A DNA stretch of 64,000 nucleotides from Octopus vulgaris. Taxonomy: Eukaryota. The position numbers and the translations under genes are program-made. The stretch covers positions 100,316,001 through 100,380,000 of the forward strand of contig OX597815.1 in assembly GCA_951406725.2 (NCBI GenBank). Reading direction: 5' to 3'. A model generated the notes under the pieces. It made no database searches. It worked only from the letters and a program-made list of their open reading frames with translations, and was not told where the DNA came from. Positions 7,446-55,079 of the stretch are shown here, piece by piece (positions within the stretch are counted from its first letter, which is position 1; each line of letters starts with the position of its first letter).

Positions 7446-7454
7446 TACATATAA

Positions 7455-7554
7455 GAGGGATGACCACTAAGTGGACGTCCATTATGCTAGGAGTCGAATT
7501 AAATTGATATTAATCAAATTAATATTCAACTATTCACCCTTATTATTTTATTTA
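7455..7554 (+). mobile_element. Short copy of the hammerhead-bearing element family at 40261-40900
   Basis: gagggatgaccactaagtggac..attatgctag followed by ttaaattgatattaatcaaattaatattcaa..ttcacccttattattt; both blocks match 40263-40387. Confidence 0.85.
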
Positions 7555-7589: not shown

Positions 7590-7810
7590 TGTGTTTGAGT
7601 ATGTCTCCACTACCACTTGACATCTAGAGTTGGTTTATTTGCGTCCCGGTAAGTGAGTGGTGTCGGCAAAAGAGAGCGATAGAATAAGTACCGGATTTTA
7701 AAAGATAAATAAGTACCACGATCGATTTGTTCGATTAAACCCTTCAAGGAGGTGCCCCAGCATGGCCGCAATCAAATAACTGAAACAATTAAAGTAAACA
7801 AAGGATAAAG
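7590..7810 (+). mobile_element. SINE family A, 3' half
   Basis: cggcaaaagagagcgatagaataagtacc...aaggaggtgccccagcatggccgca..tgaaaca, matching 33448-33863. Confidence 0.75.
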
Positions 7811-14346: not shown

Positions 14347-14418
14347 TCCCAAGTGGTCTAGTGGTTAGGATTCCGCGCTCTCACCGCGGCGGCCGGGGTT
14401 CGATTCCCCGCTTGGGAA
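14347..14418 (+). tRNA. trnE-CTC: tRNA-Glu (anticodon CTC)
   Basis: Full cloverleaf: acceptor TCCCAAG/CTTGGGA, anticodon stem CCGCG/CGCGG with CTC at 14380-14382, T-arm CGGGG-TTCGATT-CCCCG, Pol III terminator TTTTT at 14426-14430. Confidence 0.95.
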
Positions 14419-14828: not shown

Positions 14829-14900
14829 TCCCAAGTAGTCTAGTGGTTAGGATTCCGCGCTCTCACCGCGGCGGCCGGGGTTCGATTCTCCGCTTGGGAA
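14829..14900 (+). tRNA. trnE-CTC: tRNA-Glu (CTC), second tandem copy with two substitutions
   Basis: Identical to the 14347 copy except G9>A and one C>T in the T-stem (G-U pair); T7 terminator right after. Confidence 0.88.
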
Positions 14901-15135: not shown

Positions 15136-15513
15136 TAGTGGCTTTATATTCCCCTCAACTGAAAGTGAATACTAGCAACATACACATTATAAATTGCAGT
15201 GAATTTGCCGAATCGTTAAAGCTTCATATATAATTACGCCCTTTTAAGCTCTGAATTCAAAACCGGTTATGGTTATCCATTCAGTGTCAATAAACTAAAT
15301 ATCATTCAAGCGTTGGAGAAATATTTAATACGGTTATTATTATATAATGCAATTTATAGATCAATGTGTCTCTTCTGTTTTGTTATTTTGATTATTATAT
15401 TTCATATTAGTCCCCGTTATTTCTTCTCCACCATTTGTAATTTGCTTTTGTGTTGTCCCCACGTCTTCAACACTTGTGGTCAATAAAAGAAATCATTATT
15501 ATGGTTATTAATT

Positions 15514-15937
15514 AAGGCAGCGATCTGGCAGAAACGTTAACTCACCGAGTAAAATGCTTAGGGGCACTTCGTCCGTTCTTACGTTCTGAGTACAAACTCT
15601 GCCGAAGTCGACTTTGCCTTTCTTTCTTTCGGAGTCGATAAAATAAGTATCAGTTGAGCAATGGGGTCGATGTATTTAACTTAACCCCACCCCCGAACTT
15701 GCCGGTCTTGTGCCAAAATTTGAAACCATTATTATTGTTATCAGTTAAAGCGACGAACTGGCAGAACAATTAGCTCGCCGGCAAAATGCTTAGCAGCGTA
15801 TCGTCCGTCTTTACGTTCTGAGATCAAATTTCGCCGAGGTCGACTTTGCCTTTCGGGGTCGATGAAATAAATACCAGTCGATGTAAGTGATTTATCCCTT
15901 CCCACAAAACTATGAGTTTTGTGCCGAAATTTGAAAT
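15514..15937 (+). mobile_element. Two head-to-tail SINE family B copies
   Basis: Two units (15514-15726, 15748-15937) of ggc..gctggcagaa..gttag..aaaatgcttag..ttacgttctgag..gtcgactttgccttt..ggggtcgatg..tgtgcc.aaatttgaaa. Confidence 0.8.
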
Positions 15938-16830
15938 TATTATTATTAATTATTTTTTTCTTCTTGATTTAAAAAATTTTCTCTTTTCACGCCTTTTTTT
16001 AATTTCGTGTTTTTTGGGTTTTTTTTACCAATAGCTTAGTCAGAGAAAAAGTGATACTTTTCCATGCCCCCTAAAACTGTTGGAAAGATTGACGTTATCC
16101 TCAAATCGGAGATCATTCTCGAAGCTTGCAACATTTCTAACTCTGCGAACGTCACTTAAGATACACATGGTGATGTTAAATCCAGAAAGGGGACAAGTTC
16201 GCCACTCAAAAGCAGGAAAAGTCCTTGTGCGGGGCTTCCACTGTTTCTGTCGATTAAATTTTGTTTAACAAGGCTTTGATAGACCCTAGGTTGTGGGAGA
16301 AGACATTTGCGAAGGGAATTTCTTAACCATACTACCACGCCTATCTATATCTTGCCATGACCACACCCTTTACATCCTTCTCTCTCCATATCACGGCCAC
16401 AGAACTGAAAGAGTTCGATAGACTGACTAAATATTGACAAAACAGACAGAAAGACAAAGAATCTTGGAAGATAAAGTAGCTCCATTAATCTATCAATGAT
16501 TACGAACTTCAATCGATTACCTCAAAATCAACTTCAAATGTGATAAGAAGAAAGTTTTGTCGTGGATATTATTTTTGTTGTTCTTGTAAATAGTGTTTTG
16601 CTTTTGTTTTTGGAGGAGGTAGATGGAGGTAAACAAGAGCTTTCGCTGTTTGTTTTCTGTGTATTTTCTATCGTTTTCTTTCATTTCTTTTTTCTTCGAC
16701 TTTAAGCTTTTCATTTATCTTTCCTGGGTTTTGTAATGTTTGTTGTATATTTTTGTCTTGTTCTCTTTTGTTCTTGTTCTTCCTATTTCTAGTTAGTTTT
16801 CTCTGTTGTTTTATATTCTTTGTATGTAAA

Positions 16831-20680: not shown

Positions 20681-22138
20681 TATATAGGTAAACAGTAAAA
20701 ATAATTACAGACATGGACAAGAACATGAAACACCACAGAGACGACACAAGAACCACAGGACGGGACATTCGAAGCCCTCAGTCATCAGTCAAGAACCAGA
20801 TCATCTTAGCAATTTCGGCTGATTAATCTTGAGATTGCTCCGATATGGGCAGCCCGCCAAGGGAAATCTAAGCCAAGCGCATTAGATCCCCTGGAAGAAA
20901 GCTTCGAATGTATACAACACGAGGACGGAAAACGAACGAAGTACACGAACAAAAATACAGAATACGTGACACCAATAAGAATACAAAAACGTAAAAACAA
21001 TAACGGTAAAAATAAAAAATAAACAACAGAACAAAACCAGGACGTAGGACAAGGGTCTTTCGACAGGACGAGTTGAGTATGGGGCTGGCTTATGAAGTTG
21101 TGCCTAATGGCCGCAGGAGACGAACAAATACGTGTTGCTTCGGCGACTGCTGGAACGAAAAGAGCGCTCAACAGCGGCTAGCGGTCACGTGAGAACAAAA
21201 GACAGGAGAAAGGGACAGATGAAAAGAGAGAGAAGGTGGACGAGGGAGGAGAAGAAAGAGACAGATCGAGGGGGCTGGAGGTGAGAGAGATAGAGAAACG
21301 TAGAAGGGGGGGAACGGATGGAGAGGGAAAGAAAGGAAGGGGAATAAGGGAGGAGAGAGAGAGAGAGAAAGAGAGAAAGAGACAGATTAAGAGTCGTATC
21401 AATGCTAGAGAAAAAATATACTTATCGTATAAGGACAATTGTGGATACGTAGCCGCCGATTATATAGGTAAACAGTAAAAATAATTACAGACATGGACAA
21501 GAACATGAAACACCACAGAGACGACACAAGAACCACAGGACGGGACATTCGAAGCCCTCAGTCATCAGTCAAGAACCAGATCATCTTAGCAATTTCGGCT
21601 GATTAATCTTGAGATTGCTCCGATATGGGCAGCCCGCTTAGGGAAATCTAAGCCAAGCGCATTAGATCCCCTGGAAGAAAGCTTCGAATGTATACAACAC
21701 GAGGACGGAAAACGAACGAAGTACACGAACAAAAATACAGAATACGTGACACCAATAAGAATACAAAAACGTAAAAACAATAACGGTAAAAATAAAAAAT
21801 AAACAACAGAACAAAACCAGGACGTAGGACAAGGGTCTTTCGACAGGACGAGTTGAGTATGGGGCTGGCTTATGAAGTTGTGCCTAATGGCCGCAGGGAG
21901 ACGAACAAATACGTGTTGCTTCGGCGACTGCTGGAACGAAAAGAGCGCTCAACAGCGGCTAGCGGTCACGTGAGAACAAAAGACAGGAGAAAGGGACAGA
22001 TGAAAAGAGAGAGAAGGTGGACGAGGGAGGAGAAGAAAGAGACAGATCGAGGGGGCTGGAGGTGAGAGAGATAGAGAAACGTAGAAGGGGGGGGAAGACG
22101 GATGGAGAGGGAAAGAAAGGAAGGGGAATAAGGGAGGA
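20681..22138. repeat. Head-to-tail tandem duplication, 780-bp unit (20681-21460) plus partial second unit (21461-22138), flanked by (TA)n
   Basis: Both units start tatataggtaaacagtaaaaataattacagacatgg exactly 780 nt apart and differ at only a few positions. Confidence 0.95.
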
Positions 22139-27049: not shown

Positions 27050-27908
27050 GAGTGCGATGGGTAAATTGTCCCCATTTTATATTTATTTTTAATTTCGCGC
27101 ATGTGCATTGTTGTTTTTGATTTTGTCGAGTACACAATATAGTAGGATCAGTTGGGTACTGTCAGTGAGAAAAACAGCACCATGACGAAATTCAGTCTGC
27201 CAGAAATTTGGAAACAACAAGTTCAATACGAACATTTCAGAGTATTTGGGTATCAATCTGAAGACATTACAATCTGAGGACGTGTACCGAGAGTGGTAAA
27301 AATCAAATCTCAAGTCAACATCATGGTGTTTGGAGTGATCACTTGTGATGGTGACGTTATGCCTCCATTCATCTTCCCACACGACCTCAAAATCAACATG
27401 GAGGCCTACATTAAGTGGCTGCGGGAGGTAGTGCTGCCCTGGGTCAAGAGGGTGGCTGCTGGAAGACCCTATGTCAGGCAACAGGTCTCTGCACCATGCC
27501 ATACAAGCAGGAGAACCCTGTCATGGCTGTCAGACAATTTTCGCGATCACATCACCCTTAACATCTGGCCACCTAACTCTCCAGATTGCAACCCCTTTGA
27601 TTATTATGTGTGGGGCGCAGTTGAGCGAGAGACCAACAAAACTCCTTTTAACACCAAAGAGGAACTGAAGGCAAGGATTATAGCAGCATTCACCACCTTA
27701 AACAAGGAGACTGTCGAGAAGAGTTGCAGATTCCAAAGTCGCCTGGAGGCCGTGATTGAAGCCAATGGCGATTTTATTGAATAAATTTACTCTTTAGTAT
27801 TTCAAGCTATTTTTACGTAATTTTAGTAGATATATCTGCAAAAATGAGATGTCAGTGTTATTTTCATTTCATGCGTAATTTAGACTACGGTTTATTCACC
27901 ACACCATA
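27047..27908 (+). mobile_element. Internally deleted maT (DD37D) Tc1/mariner-superfamily transposon; transposase remnant 27293-27784
   Basis: VMVFGVIT..RQQVSAPCHT..WPPNSPDCNPFDYYVW, with 37 residues between the second catalytic position (D>V) and the final D; degenerate TIRs with TA flanks. Confidence 0.85.
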
Positions 27909-30696: not shown

Positions 30697-31136
30697 GATA
30701 CATACATACACACATATATAAAAGAACACAGCGCACAAATACATGTACACATATTTTAACGCGCATGCACACATTCACGCACAAATACAAGTATTAGTGT
30801 GTGTGTGTGCGTGTATGTATATACATATATATATATATATACATACATACATACATACATATTATATATATATATATACATGTGTGTGTGTGTGTGTGTG
30901 TGTATGAATGAGCAATTTCTTTTAAGGCGGTGCTCCAGCATGTCCTCAGTTAAACCTTCCCAGTTGGACATTCAACATCAAGTTTGTTGTCTTTGTCATT
31001 GGGACCAGGCGTCAGGTTTGAGAATAACCTATGAATTGTGTATTCCTTTCTTTTCCCCCACCAGTTTTTGTGGTCTGCAATCTAACCATAGAGGGTACTC
31101 TTCTTTCTCGTTCTAAGACAAAAATATAATTAGATA

Positions 31137-32021
31137 TGTTTCTTTATTAGCCACACAGACCTGCACACAGACGGGACAGATTACAAAGTAGAGCTTTTCT
31201 TTTTGGGGGAGAGGAAAAAAAATGGTGGGTTAGGTTTTCGATCAAAAGAGATCGTAAAAGGGAAAGAAGAAAAAAAGGGGGGGAAAAGGGTAAAAACGAT
31301 CAATAGGGATCATGTATCACAGTGTCATGGTGTAAAGTGTAAAGAGGGAAGCAGATAAGGTTTATCCGTGGGAAGAAAAGCCTACGGAAAAGACCACGGT
31401 AACCTCGGTCAATGATGTTACATATTACCACATTAGTTTGCAAGTAGGTAACCCTCTGTTTTAAATTTTTCGGGTTCATAGGATTATGCCCAAGGTGGCT
31501 TCGTCATTCATACGTGCCATCCTTGCTACATTCACCCATCTTTTTTTGAAACATTCGCTAGACAAAAACTTGCCTCTCTACTCTCACTTACCTTTTCAAG
31601 TGATACTTGAAGAAGTTGATGAGAGATTGACCAGAGAGGAAAGTGTTTGTCTCCAATCCTTTCAGACGCGTCCACCAGATACATTCTTTCGCCATAGCCA
31701 CAAGGATGATGAAAATAGCTCTTCCTTCCCGTTTGAAGGAAGGGGGCGTGACAATATTGACGATAGACTCGGCTGATAAACCGACTCGTCCCACACGTGA
31801 CAGCAGTCGTTCGACATAAGCCCACAGGTCGGAAATTGTTGAACACTGAAGGAGTGCGTGCAGAACGGTTTCGTCGCTCTGACCGCATCTCGGGCAGGTC
31901 GGCCCCGTGTTTCTCGAGCCATGTCTGTAGAGCTTATTCCGAACGGGTAGCGCTTCTCGGTAGCACTGCCAGGCCAGGGATCTCTGGAAGTTGTCCATGG
32001 GCCCTGGCCCGAAAGTCGGCA
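31137..32021 (-). mobile_element. L1/Tx1-like LINE, 5'-truncated (ORF2 zinc-knuckle region plus 3' UTR)
   Basis: FQRSLAWQCYREALPVRNKL..CPRCGQSDETVLHALLQC..LW is zf-RVT-like; 3' tail ..ctgtgtggctaataaagaaacatatc. Confidence 0.9.
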
Positions 32022-32024
32022 GAC

Positions 32025-32119
<95 letters not shown>

Positions 32120-32120
<1 letters not shown>

Positions 32121-32180
32121 TTATTAGCCACACTGGGTCGAACACAGAGGGGGCAACACAATGTAGAACTTTTCTTTTCA
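32120..32180 (-). mobile_element. Tx1-like LINE 3' tip adjoining (GATA)n
   Basis: ttattagccacactgggtcgaacacagaggggg matches the 31137 terminus. Confidence 0.75.
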
Positions 32181-32488
32181 TCATCATCATTTGTACCAGT
32201 TGCGTACTGGGGTCGATCTAATCGACTTGCACCTTCCCCCAAAATTTCGGACCTTGTGCCTAGAGCAGAAAAGAAATATATTTATCCTACATTATAACGG
32301 CACAGCTCGGTACAACCCCATAAAACTGCTATTGGTAGTCGGTGTCATTAGGCTGTAGCCGGCATGATAAAATAGCTTTTATATGCATACTCAAAACCCT
32401 TCTCCCATAAACGAACTAAAAGGTTGTGTGTGTGTATGTGTGTATGTGTGTGTGTGTGTATGTGTGCGTGCGTGCGTGCGTGCGTGTG

Positions 32489-36913: not shown

Positions 36914-37004
36914 ATCTAAGGTGTACCTGCTGAAGAAGGCTTCGCCTAGCAAATTATTATATTTGCTAAAAAAAGGTCTGAAACCATTGGTCCAGGAGTT
37001 AGAT
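36914..37004 (+). ncRNA. Type I hammerhead ribozyme, intact core; predicted cleavage after GUC at 36992
   Basis: Stem I CCTG/CAGG extended by ATCTAA/TTAGAT across an internal loop; CTGAAGA 36930-36936; stem II AGGCTT/AGGTCT enclosing TAGCAAAT/ATTTGCTA; GAAA 36980-36983; stem III CC-ATT-GG; TC. Confidence 0.85.
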
Positions 37005-38289: not shown

Positions 38290-39135
38290 CGGACAAATTT
38301 CCTTGTAGCATTCGTTCCCGGTCTTTAAGTACGAGACAAATCCTGCAAATCAGTTTTTGTCTTCCGTACTTTTAGATTCGATAAGATAATGTACAAACCT
38401 AATGCTGGAGTCGTTGTAATTCGGTAATCCACTACTCGCAAAAATTGCCGGCCTTGTTTATAATTTAGAAACAATCATTATCAATACTGGTTTCATATTT
38501 TGGTACAATGCCATCGATTTGGTGGGAGTGGGGCGTGAGTCGATTAAATCGACTCCGGTATTCAACTGGTACTTATTTTACCGACTCCGAAAGAACGAGA
38601 AACAAAGTTAACCCCAGCAGTGTTAGAAATCAGAACGTAAAGATGGATGAGACGCTGCTAAGCATTTTGTCCAGCGTGCTAAAGAGGCCTGCCAGCACGC
38701 CACCCCCTGATTATTAATATCGGTTTCACATTTTGGCACAAACTCATCAAGAGGGAAGAGGTAAGTCGATTACAATGACCCCCACTCTCTTCTCAACTGG
38801 TGATTATTTTATCGATCCCGAAAGGATGAAAAGTTAAAGTCGCCCCGATGGCATTTGTACCAAAATTTAAAGCCAATATAAATATTACACTTAAGGCAGG
38901 CGAGCTGGTATAGTGATTAGCACGCCGGGAAAATGCTTAGCGGCATTTCGACCGTCTTTACTTTTTCATTTCAAGTTCCACTGGGTCGACTTTGTCTTTC
39001 ATCCTTTCGGGATCGATAAAATAAGTACCAGTTGAACACTGGTAGTGACTTACTCACTCCCCGGAAATTGTTGAGCTGATACCAAAATTTAAAACCAACG
39101 GTGGTGCCCCAGCATGGCCGCGGCCTTCGGGCTAA
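38290..39135. mobile_element. Cluster of SINE family B copies in both orientations
   Basis: Minus copies 38490-38880, plus copy 38895-39096 (ggcgagctggtatagtgattagcacgccgg..gtcgactttgtctttcatcctttcggg). Confidence 0.75.
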
Positions 39136-40099: not shown

Positions 40100-40151
<52 letters not shown>

Positions 40152-40225
40152 GGTGCCCCAGATAAATGGCGGTGCCCCAGCATGGCCACAGCTCATTAGC
40201 TGAAACTGGAAAAATCAAAATCAAA

Positions 40226-40260
<35 letters not shown>

Positions 40261-40265
<5 letters not shown>

Positions 40266-40895
40266 GGATGACCACTAAGTGGACTTCTATTATGCTAGAT
40301 GTAGACCCCATATGGTCTGATAACTAGGTTTTAAATTGATATTAATCAAATTAATATTCAATTTTTCACCCTTGTTATTTAAATTTAAATAACCATGTTC
40401 TCTAACCGGCAAAATTCACTGCAGAGAATTATTTTCTACAGATTATTTCCGGGAGTTTAGCGCGCCAAAACGAAGACTTTTGAAATATAACCCCAAATAT
40501 GATTGGTAAAACTATATGCACATATATGCGGACGTCTCGTGTATAGTTCTGCAAATTATATTTTGCTATGACGATCACACTGATGAATTGCGGACATTTA
40601 CGTAAGTATTACGTAAGAGGTAACAATGAAACCGGGTTTGTGATTAATCTTTATATTTTGTATCTTTTCATTTGTCTTGCTCGCTTACGTTCTGGCGTCT
40701 GCTGAATTTTCTTGAGAACAATCTTTTCTTAGTGGGGTCTACATCTAGCATAATGGATGTCCACTTAGTGGTCATCCCATTTATATATATGTAATATAAT
40801 TTTTCTGAATCTTCAGATTTTTCAATATGCTGGGCCACTGGTTTTAAATTGATATTAATCAAATTAATATTCAATTTTTCACCCTTATTATTTAA

Positions 40896-40900
<5 letters not shown>
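40261..40900 (+). mobile_element. Non-autonomous Penelope-like/retrozyme-like element: 46-bp inverted repeat, 61-bp direct repeat and internal hammerhead, in (TA)n
   Basis: IR 40265-40310/40733-40778 (2 mismatches); DR 40327-40387/40840-40900 (1 mismatch); (TA)n on both sides. Confidence 0.85.
40573..40645 (+). ncRNA. Type I hammerhead ribozyme motif with minimal stem III (GUU site, after 40638)
   Basis: Stem I GATCACA/TGTGATT; CTGATGA 40580-40586; stem II ATTG/CAAT enclosing TTACGTAA-gta-TTACGTAA; GAAAC-CGG-GTT 40628-40638. Confidence 0.75.
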
Positions 40901-40961
<61 letters not shown>

Positions 40962-47956: not shown

Positions 47957-49310
47957 TTTCTTTATTGGTCACACAGGGCTGAAATACAGAGGAGACAAAT
48001 AAAAATGTAGAGCTTTTCTTTTCGAAGATGGAAAAAGAAAAAGGTAACAAAAAGGAAACAAATGTAAAATTCCGATCAAAAGGGATCAGGGAATAAAAAG
48101 CGATCGAAAGGGATCGTGTATCACAGAAACAAATTTTTTTAACTATTAGAAACAAGATTATGTTCATCCGTGGGAACAAAAACCTACAGAAAAGACCACG
48201 GTAACCTCAGTCAGGGAGGAAATAAACACATGAGAGCAAAGTGCTCTCTCTATCTCTTTTACGATTTACATGATCATGCTCAAAGTGGTTTCGTCCCTCG
48301 CACGCACCATATATGCTACATTCACCCACCTTTTTTTGAAACTTTCGCGAGACAAAACCTGCTCTCCATTCTCACCTTCCTTTTCAAGTGGTACTTGAAA
48401 AAGTTGATGAGCGATTGACCAGAGAGGTAAGTGTTTGTCTCTAATCCTTTCGCTCGGGTCCACCATACACATTCTTTCACCATGGCCACCAATACGATGA
48501 AAACTGCCTTGCCTTCCCGGTTGAGGGAAGGGGGCGGAGCAATATACACGATAGACTCGGCCGACAGGCGGACTCGTCCCACACGTGACAGCAGCCGTTC
48601 GGCATAAGCCCACAGGTCTGAAATGGCTGGACACTTCAAGAGTGCGTGCAGAACGGTTTCGTCGCTCTGACCGTATCTCGGACCAGTCAGCCTAACCCTC
48701 CATTTAGCGAGTGTTGACAGCCTAACCATCGGAACGCTTCCCTTCTACAGGAAGCGGAAGAGTATGCGTTCCAGTTTGGTGATGGTAGGGTCGGGACAAG
48801 GCACGACGGTCAGACGGTACTCGATGACGGATGCGATGTACGCGTTCGCCACCTCCGTCACACCTTTTATGGATAGATTCCTCTCAGCCCATTGCTGGGT
48901 GAGAGTGGCCACCCTAGTCGTTATTTCGCCCCAGTTCTTCTCCATTTGGAAGTTCGGACCGAACCAGACTCCAAGCAATTTAACCGGTCCGTCGGTCCAG
49001 TGTCCCACGATGGAGACGCTGTTGGACGGCATGGGCTTGCTTCTCCAGGTGCCGAGCCGGGATTTTCCCGGATAATATTTGCTCCCGTTACCGCATCGTA
49101 TTGTTTTAGCGTCTCGCCGACCAGGTCGATGTGCTTGTGGCTCGACACTATGACGGTGACGTCGTCCGCGTATGCAGACACGCTCCTCCCGCATCCCAGC
49201 TCTCGTGGGATGCCCCTCAGTGCCACCAGTTTCCATAGTAGTGGCTCAAGAGTCAATACATACAGAAGCGATGAGAGGGGGAATCCTTGACGAACCGAAC
49301 GCATGATGTT
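47957..49310 (-). mobile_element. L1/Tx1-like LINE fragment with RT core and C-terminus, frameshifted and internally deleted
   Basis: SVRQGFPLSSLLYVL..SAYADDVTVIV..VKLLGVWFG..W..RNLSIKG; C-terminal region homologous to 31588-32021; same 3' tail. Confidence 0.92.
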
Positions 49311-49353
49311 AAAAGAGATAGACAGATAGATAGACAGACAGAGATGGATAGAC

Positions 49354-49440
<87 letters not shown>

Positions 49441-50079
49441 AAAATCTTGGCTCAAAGACAAAACTTCCGATAGAAGGATTCAATACGAATGATGTAGTAG
49501 CAGGAGAGCGATGAGTTACATTTAATAGATTTATTGTTTTAGCAAAGTTTGTGGACGTGTGTCTGTTTATCTATTCGAAGTTTATGCAAAAACACTAGCA
49601 AACGAACACCCACAAAACATTATCTTTTATTGTTCACTATCTCATATTACTGGTTTCTATAACATTTTTATCGATCTTTTCAGCGTTAGTCTGTTTGAAT
49701 GAAATGCTAAAATATTCTAGATACTGTTTATGAATATGCTACAAGCCATTGCTTCTGCAAATTATCTTGCTTGCTTTTTTTCATAATGTTCCAAAATTCT
49801 GCCGCTAGCTGTGTATACATATCTACAATCGTGTATCGAGGTACACAAACACTCGTGTGTATGTGCACATTTACCTATGCTCGTTTGCATATGCATCTAT
49901 ATGCACACACACACACATACACACAAACACACACACACACACACACAGCAACACAGGTAAACAGTTGATTAGCATAATCTCGCACGCATCCGAAAATGCT
50001 TTCTCTCACTCGTACAAACACACACATATGTATATTCAAATTTGTATATATGTATGTGTATAAGTGTGTGTATATATTT

Positions 50080-54586: not shown

Positions 54587-54967
54587 AATTAAATCGACTC
54601 CAGTGCACAACTGGTACTTATTTTATCGACCGCGAAAGGAGGAAAGACAAAGTTGATCCCGGCAGCATTTGAACCTAGAACATTAAGTCGGACGAAATTC
54701 CGCTAAGAATTTTGTCCAGTGCAGTAACGATTCTGCCAGTTCACCGCTTTAATCTTATATATTATTGCTTTCAAATTTTAGCACAAGACCAATAATTTCG
54801 GGTGAGAGGATTGATTGCATCGACCATACTGTTCAACTAGTACTTATTTAAAGACCTCGAAAGGCCAAGTCGACTTCGGCTGAATGTGAAAGTAGAACGT
54901 AAAGACAGACGAAATGCCGCTAAGCATTTTGCCTGGCATGCTAACGATTCTGCCAGCTCACCGCCTT
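54587..54967 (-). mobile_element. Two tandem SINE family B copies
   Basis: Both end ..gacgaaat.ccgctaag.attttg....taacgattctgccag.tcaccgc. Confidence 0.8.
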
Positions 54968-55079
54968 AAGCTTATATATTATTAATAATGTTTAAATAAT
55001 GACTAAGAACATCAAACATTAGCTGAAAAAAATATGATATGAGATAGAGTCATATCTATGTATGTATGTATGTAGGTGC

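Follow-up and report, generated by a model that had tools for sequence, protein, structure and literature searches.

The Octopus vulgaris sequence at positions 40261–40900 of the window (the whole 64-kb stretch of DNA analysed) belongs to an abundant family of ~0.5-kb head-to-tail units that is, on balance, probably a non-autonomous Penelope-like element (PLE) that relies on a PLE with (TA)n targets for its reverse transcriptase (RT) and GIY-YIG endonuclease. A unit, a shared head-to-tail junction, inverted arms of variable length, a 3' bias and (TA)n flanks are directly observed for this family. The first-pass annotation had proposed a Penelope-like, non-autonomous element whose head-to-tail unit was copied through slightly more than one turn, and this is supported, the junction being common to diverged members.

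Anatomy of the element and its family

Read from the sequence, the parts of the element follow the order arm, direct repeat, body, hammerhead, second arm and second direct repeat, and the anatomy first reported for it (a 46-bp inverted-repeat core, a 61-bp direct repeat at a period of 513, a hammerhead and (TA)n on both sides) is borne out. The flanks, (TA)16 at 40229–40260 and (TA)30 at 40899–40958 (neither assigned a strand), are the left and right halves of the target microsatellite. We note that a 3' fragment of a very common repeat, with a 19-bp duplication (40149–40228), is in the same (TA)n tract and adjoins the element on the left; further copies of that repeat lie near 7748, 22257, 30926, 33802, 37330, 37905, 39097 and 57996. 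The direct repeat occupies 40327–40387 and 40840–40900 with 60 of 61 positions identical, and its first copy (plus strand) is a short pseudo-LTR, in which the final 61 nt of the unit recur as a partial tandem, as is typical of PLE anatomy. Behind it lies one whole unit (40388–40900, plus strand, 33% GC) of 513 bp, a length that is read from this copy alone, a single contig over the whole stretch being lacking. A perfect AT-rich palindrome of 20 bp (40374–40393, no strand) spans the head-to-tail junction and is 18 bp long if the family's majority letter at 40374 is used. The unit contains, all on the plus strand, a 38-codon open stretch named P0001 (40393–40509), a predicted type I hammerhead (40573–40645) that is 255 nt from the unit end, the internal original of the inverted arm with a short TA tract at its end (40733–40790), and a tail of ~110 nt (40791–40900; 120 nt counted from the arm core), which is present in the direct copy only and includes the repeat at 40840–40900 and a hairpin at 40846–40877. 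This tail is three to four times longer than the 30–40 bp of PLE descriptions.

The inverted repeat had been given as 46 bp long, which is correct for its core (40265–40310 and 40733–40778, 2 mismatches), but the full left arm is a 60-bp inverted, 5'-truncated copy of a family segment that ends at an internal TA tract (40261–40320, minus strand), and it retains 13 nt that are absent from the internal copy. Because these 13 nt, kept by the left arm, are also found behind 40735 in 41 X1 and 33 X3 contigs (public runs described below), we take the arm to be 60 bp long and the family unit to be ~526 bp once the nucleotides missing from the internal copy at this locus are counted. A 6-nt filler (40321–40326, plus strand) joins the inverted to the direct part. 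The arm differs from its internal original by 5 substitutions and the 13 bp, which exceeds the divergence of the direct repeats, so the arm and the direct part may derive from two template molecules or from two (nested) insertions.

A second, short family copy at 7454–7553 (plus strand) sits between (GATA)n/TA and (TA)n and consists of a single 37-bp inverted arm, an 8-nt filler and ~55 nt from the very end of the unit. Its breakpoints, in arm length and in direct length, are unlike those of the larger copy, which indicates an independent insertion. A variable-length inverted, 5'-truncated copy at the 5' end, one of the PLE features, is seen in both window copies (60 and 37 bp) and at four X1 arm-to-direct joints, all with distinct breakpoints (40280>40705, 40299>40706, 40309>40784 and 40320>40700). 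Arm length varies from 20 to 60 bp in the window and X1 taken together, and three other arm-to-direct joints have fillers of 1–9 nt.

Four public runs were compared at 85% likeness, X24 as raw RNA reads (6% of the run) and X1, X3 and X15 as contigs; 227 X24 reads and 4795, 2376 and 314 contigs, respectively, were placed. Part of the element stretch is present in 20 of the 24 listed public runs, none of which has half of its words, and the family and its head-to-tail junction are present in runs from four studies. The 40387/40388 junction is bridged by at least 31 nt per side in 3 of 24 listed pieces, one from each contig run (X1, X3 and X15), with 20, 12 and 3 differences, and a variant at 40394 occurs in 47 X1 contigs, the best of which extends 59 nt on either side. 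Since diverged contigs bridge it in all three contig runs, the head-to-tail junction is a property of the family, and copies are, as far as the data reach, not confined to plain truncated tails, which would have spoken against the first-pass annotation.

Summed depth behind the hammerhead is 6–23 times that of the body, and in the last 44 nt 19–59 times, in all four runs; such depth does not measure copy number, and the gradient is inflated by sister families that share the 3' part alone. Loose ends before 40654 and 40744 represent such sister families, with different upstream sequence. The 5' truncation common among PLEs is seen as this 3' bias, to which sister families contribute, and in the short copy at 7454. 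Among the best 24 of 650 loose ends, those at 40778, 40870, 40877, 40891, 40893 and 40898 run into TA- or CA-type repeats, and behind 40778 the sequence entered is TA-rich in 17 X3 contigs. X24 first mates at 40327–40458 are biased toward the plus strand (3–7 versus 0–1), on few reads from a library whose strandedness is not established, and a TATA/initiator-like pair seen by eye near 40782/40815 has no read support.

The near identity of its repeats had suggested that the copy was recent. This was an overstatement, since at least 9 of 513 positions differ from a letter with more than 70% of the depth in X1 and X3 (among the best 40 of 177 variant rows), a divergence of at least 1.8% from the family majority, and the internal copy carries the 13-bp deletion in addition. 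If the majority letter is taken as ancestral and the Octopus substitution rate as 0.0036 per million years (PMC13282606), the insertion would be about 5 million years old or older.

Several other repeats lie in the same window. A 780-bp unit at 20686–22138 is present in 1.87 head-to-tail copies that are 99% identical over 678 bp, has (TA)n at both ends and a CUGAUGA...GAA core-like motif near 20789 on the minus strand, and looks like another PLE-type partial tandem. The ~220 bp between inverted repeats of ~26–30 bp at 38805–39023 are MITE-like, and their family is repeated at 536–707, 15489–15947, 38483–39098 and 54587–54997. Non-LTR retrotransposon frame fragments interrupted by (GATA)n are found at 48266–49451 and 31132–32217, with four relatives at 51–69% identity, and 27278–27784 is a fragment that, by eye, we take to be transposase-like.

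The predicted hammerhead

The hammerhead is composed of stem I (40573–79 and 40639–45), a CUGAUGA core (40580–86), a long stem II, GAAA (40628–31) and a palindromic helix III, and its predicted cut falls after the GUU at 40636–38; as a predicted motif, it provides the sense-strand type I hammerhead that PLEs carry in the terminal region. It is the sole match of a strict descriptor on both strands of the 64 kb, and dinucleotide shuffles of the element gave any match in 1 of 5000 and an equally strict match in 0 of 5000; the motif is beyond chance. An Rfam search of the window returned no hammerhead at E<=10, and the gathering score was reached by two tRNAs alone (14347–14418 and 14829–14900, in segments duplicated at a distance of 482 bp). 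At 40618 the letter carried by the majority (93–100% of contig depth) re-forms an A-U pair of stem II, and the core positions are unvaried among the best 40 of 177 variant rows; conservation of the ribozyme across the family is weakly supported.

The fold of the hammerhead itself is unremarkable (z –1.5), and a stem I extension for loop-loop contacts is not seen in the sequence. The minimum-energy fold (–15.9 kcal/mol) pairs the core and lies 5.9 kcal/mol below the active monomer fold (–10.0 kcal/mol), while the palindromic helix III can pair with that of a second copy (–11.7 kcal/mol), and a helix III of this sort is described in PLE ribozymes acting in dimeric form (PMC4209133). Folding thus predicts a hammerhead that is weak alone and would cut as a dimer, and it is probably dispensable for insertion. 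Splice-donor-like hexamers at 40602 and 40613 in the long stem II and acceptor-like ones at 40441 and 40732 have no read support; splicing from these donors to the downstream acceptor-like 40732 would delete half of the ribozyme. Another type I hammerhead motif, of a different family, is located at 36923–37000 (plus strand), with a CUGAAGA core, a palindromic helix III with a 1-nt loop and a GUC triplet; it lies ~120 nt ahead of a (TG)n tract and is probably the 3' remnant of another PLE.

Directly behind the predicted cut site of the element the depth rises, 14-, 25-, 45- and 17-fold in X1, X3, X15 and X24, respectively, from 40613–40634 to 40657–40678. Seven of the best 15 of 66 joints fall at 40635–40670, one of them at exactly 40639 in both DNA runs (binomial p ~0.002 if joints are spread over the 3' 265 nt, for an interval picked post hoc), and four of the seven are same-strand skips with undetermined letters between. 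In addition, 17 X24 reads depart at 40654 into different ribozyme-like sequence. We tentatively raise the possibility, itself rather doubtful, that the hammerhead cuts in vivo and that the cut RNA is the usual template, so that most copies would start at 40639 or shortly after it; the depth step is explained equally well so far by sister families whose ribozyme has diverged, and in vitro work on the PLE PAc found ribozyme cleavage unnecessary (PMC11167929).

Proposed insertion by a borrowed enzyme, and alternatives

PLE insertions are described as partial tandems with pseudo-LTRs, an inverted 5'-truncated copy, a 30–40-bp tail and a bias toward microsatellites (PMC8557442). For one PLE, the purified enzyme cleaves AT-rich DNA on both strands and extends them from two internal sites on the RNA, between which the tail lies, with no need for hammerhead cleavage (PMC11167929), and rotifer pseudo-LTRs, which have 18- and 38-bp palindromes, suffice for trans mobilisation (PMC3846280). 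By analogy, plus-strand transcription of a source locus in partial tandem would yield a linear RNA that exceeds one unit in length, and the borrowed enzyme would nick both strands of a (TA)n. The first nick would prime cDNA at the AU-rich palindrome (40900, equivalent to 40387), and this cDNA would copy 513 nt, cross the junction and halt 61 nt into the upstream repeat, leaving the short pseudo-LTR. The second nick would prime near 40785, at the TA tract that ends 40733–40790 and would serve as the second reverse-transcription start site, and its product would halt after 60 nt to give the inverted arm. The 110–120 nt between both start sites would be the tail, and the two 5' ends would be joined through the 6-nt filler. 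A linear transcript of the partial tandem would suffice for this, with circular RNA unnecessary; the published PLE begins reverse transcription at an internal position of RNA that has not been cleaved, which gives the same DNA with no circle (PMC11167929).

The 513-bp unit has no frame of 100 aa and so no RT or GIY-YIG frame of an autonomous PLE. The Hydra-clade protein motifs RWK, DKT and the CxCX5C linker have scattered single matches elsewhere in the window and none in the element. Exact motif scans of viral, metagenome and prokaryote genome contigs for an autonomous partner gave 0 matches, and seven element motifs compared with the Craig et al. supplement gave one unrelated 10-mer match, in an exact search that can miss variants and line breaks. 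The partner is most likely from a (TA)n-targeting, ribozyme-bearing PLE clade, possibly the Hydra clade, with which the target and the ribozyme style of the element agree.

It is unlikely that the family is instead a true retrozyme, in which paired hammerheads cut tandem arrays into ~526-nt monomers whose ligated circles are copied for 1.12 turns by a PLE enzyme. The shared head-to-tail junction, the low GC content, a predicted circular fold that pairs 66% of bases and the depth step directly behind the predicted cut site are all in its favor, the go-back joints 40602>40380 and 40430>40379 in X3 fit rearranged tandems, a circle-copying model has been proposed for PLEs (PMC4209133), and circles have been demonstrated for mussel, coral and axolotl repeats (PMC7229834). 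Yet the locus at 40261–40900 has one hammerhead, where the definition of non-LTR retrozymes asks for two or more units in a row, every one with a complete hammerhead (bioRxiv 10.64898/2026.07.22.740005), the sequence has no stem I extension, and 8 of 9 Xenopus dimers were uncleaved in vitro, according to the same preprint. The circular RNA intermediate of the first-pass annotation is so far unsupported: X24 shows no pile of read ends (its library may lose circles), none of the best 15 of 66 joints has X24 read support, depth over the ribozyme is 1–5 per strand on both strands, coverage along the unit is uneven with the same 3' bias as in DNA, and 73% of the reads continue into unlike sequence. 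These reads look like read-through of scattered copies.

An element that is simply the end of a protein-coding PLE, the 513 bp being the end of its frame plus the 3' region and the locus a plain truncated insertion, is unlikely. The strong 3' bias would suit it, as would the 30 Penelope families listed as recently active in O. vulgaris (PMC13282606), and in the Hydra clade the hammerhead follows the stop codon closely, as it does P0001, which ends 64 nt before the ribozyme and, in a comparison by eye only, has a faint likeness to Hydra-clade C-termini. P0001, however, matched nothing in Pfam, in 1.84 billion protein representatives or in Atlas, and 4 of 5 X24 reads have a 1-nt insertion at 40441 within it. 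Against this explanation are also the repeat-to-body junction common to diverged copies in three runs, the letter at 40374, which in the majority of the depth is that of the 3' repeat, and the absence of a loose end at 40388 among the best 24 of 650.

A DNA transposon is very improbable, whether of the MITE type, inserted at TA and bounded by 46–60-bp terminal inverted repeats (40261–40780), or Helentron-like and marked by a 3' hairpin, with an incidental ribozyme motif in either case. It would account for the inverted arms, the TA flanks and the hairpin 23 nt from the right end, but the family extends beyond the inner arm as far as 40900, where its depth is greatest, the hammerhead is beyond chance, and the single arm of the copy at 7454–7553 disfavours terminal inverted repeats. 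Fixed repeats of that kind, bounding the element, are contradicted by arms of 20 to 60 bp and by the continuation of the family past the inner arm. An assembly artefact or chance, for which only the microsatellite-rich region speaks, is hardly credible given the independent second copy 33 kb away and the family and junction in runs of four studies.

Known relatives and significance

The non-autonomous PLE proposed here most resembles the (TA)n-inserting hammerhead PLEs of the Hydra clade (including Hydra-1_Obim of Octopus bimaculoides), and also Neptune, in its partial tandem, pseudo-LTR, inverted 5'-truncated copy and tail (PMC8557442). With these PLEs it also shares, by the same account, the (TA)n target and a sense type I hammerhead that lies close to the 3' end, has a palindromic helix III and often cuts after U; by our own count in File S2 of that paper, the cut follows U in 10 of 25 Hydra-clade families, and loop III is a single nucleotide in 16 of 25. 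Unlike the Hydra and Neptune PLEs described there, the octopus element has no RT or GIY-YIG frame, is 0.5 kb rather than 2–3 kb long, and has the longer tail and the 255 nt after its ribozyme. Its sequence is also different from that of Hydra-1_Obim, the one octopus Hydra-clade member listed in File S2. Non-autonomous Chlamys PLEs such as MRC1 are likewise without protein, are head-to-tail with pseudo-LTRs, and share their 3' end with other families, but they are algal and their clade is described as mostly without canonical hammerheads, whereas the octopus element has one (PMC8557442). Membership in the Naiad clade is contradicted by the full hammerhead motif, as Naiads are reported in that paper to have no canonical one.

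Metazoan non-LTR retrozymes are similarly small, low in GC and non-coding, have a type I hammerhead and a head-to-tail junction, and have a proposed PLE origin (PMC7229834; bioRxiv 10.64898/2026.07.22.740005), and the octopus element falls within the 51–972 bp retrozyme range of the preprint. It is larger than the 170–400 nt circles of PMC7229834, X24 has no sign of an abundant circle, and it has the PLE inverted arm and tail, the word "inverted" being absent from the text of PMC7229834. The Poseidon element PAc of Anolis resembles it in having two preferred 3' ends that bound the tail, an AT-rich target and a ribozyme upstream of the start sites; PAc, however, codes for protein and starts in an AC-rich loop unlike its target, whereas both such ends of the octopus element lie in TA-rich, target-like stretches (PMC11167929).

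The first suggestion of a possibly uncharacterised element holds for the family, which is probably new, but not for its kind, since non-autonomous PLEs and PLE-derived retrozymes have been published. Repbase, Dfam or the O. vulgaris library (PMC13282606, Zenodo) may already contain it; in the literature on octopus or cephalopod Penelope, hammerheads, retrozymes and circular RNA, the titles concern other elements, PMC8557442 and its own preprint version aside. The family is otherwise an ordinary repeat; the 64 kb also contain the PLE-type hammerhead at 36923–37000 and the partial-tandem unit at 20686–22138.

Animal retrozymes are tied to PLEs by co-occurrence and phylogeny, with the mechanism described as unresolved in the bioRxiv preprint that proposes the connection. 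The combination of inverted arm, pseudo-LTR, tail and (TA)n target in a 0.5-kb, non-coding unit with a ribozyme lends anatomical support to the idea that PLE enzymes mobilise such units. Since the family is abundant, the 5' breakpoints of its copies could, once mapped, reveal if the template for transposition is cut in vivo by PLE hammerheads. If so, the octopus genome would preserve traces of PLE ribozymes having cut during retrotransposition, and the family would be a bridge form, a retrozyme-sized unit with the complete PLE insertion signature and an unusually long tail.
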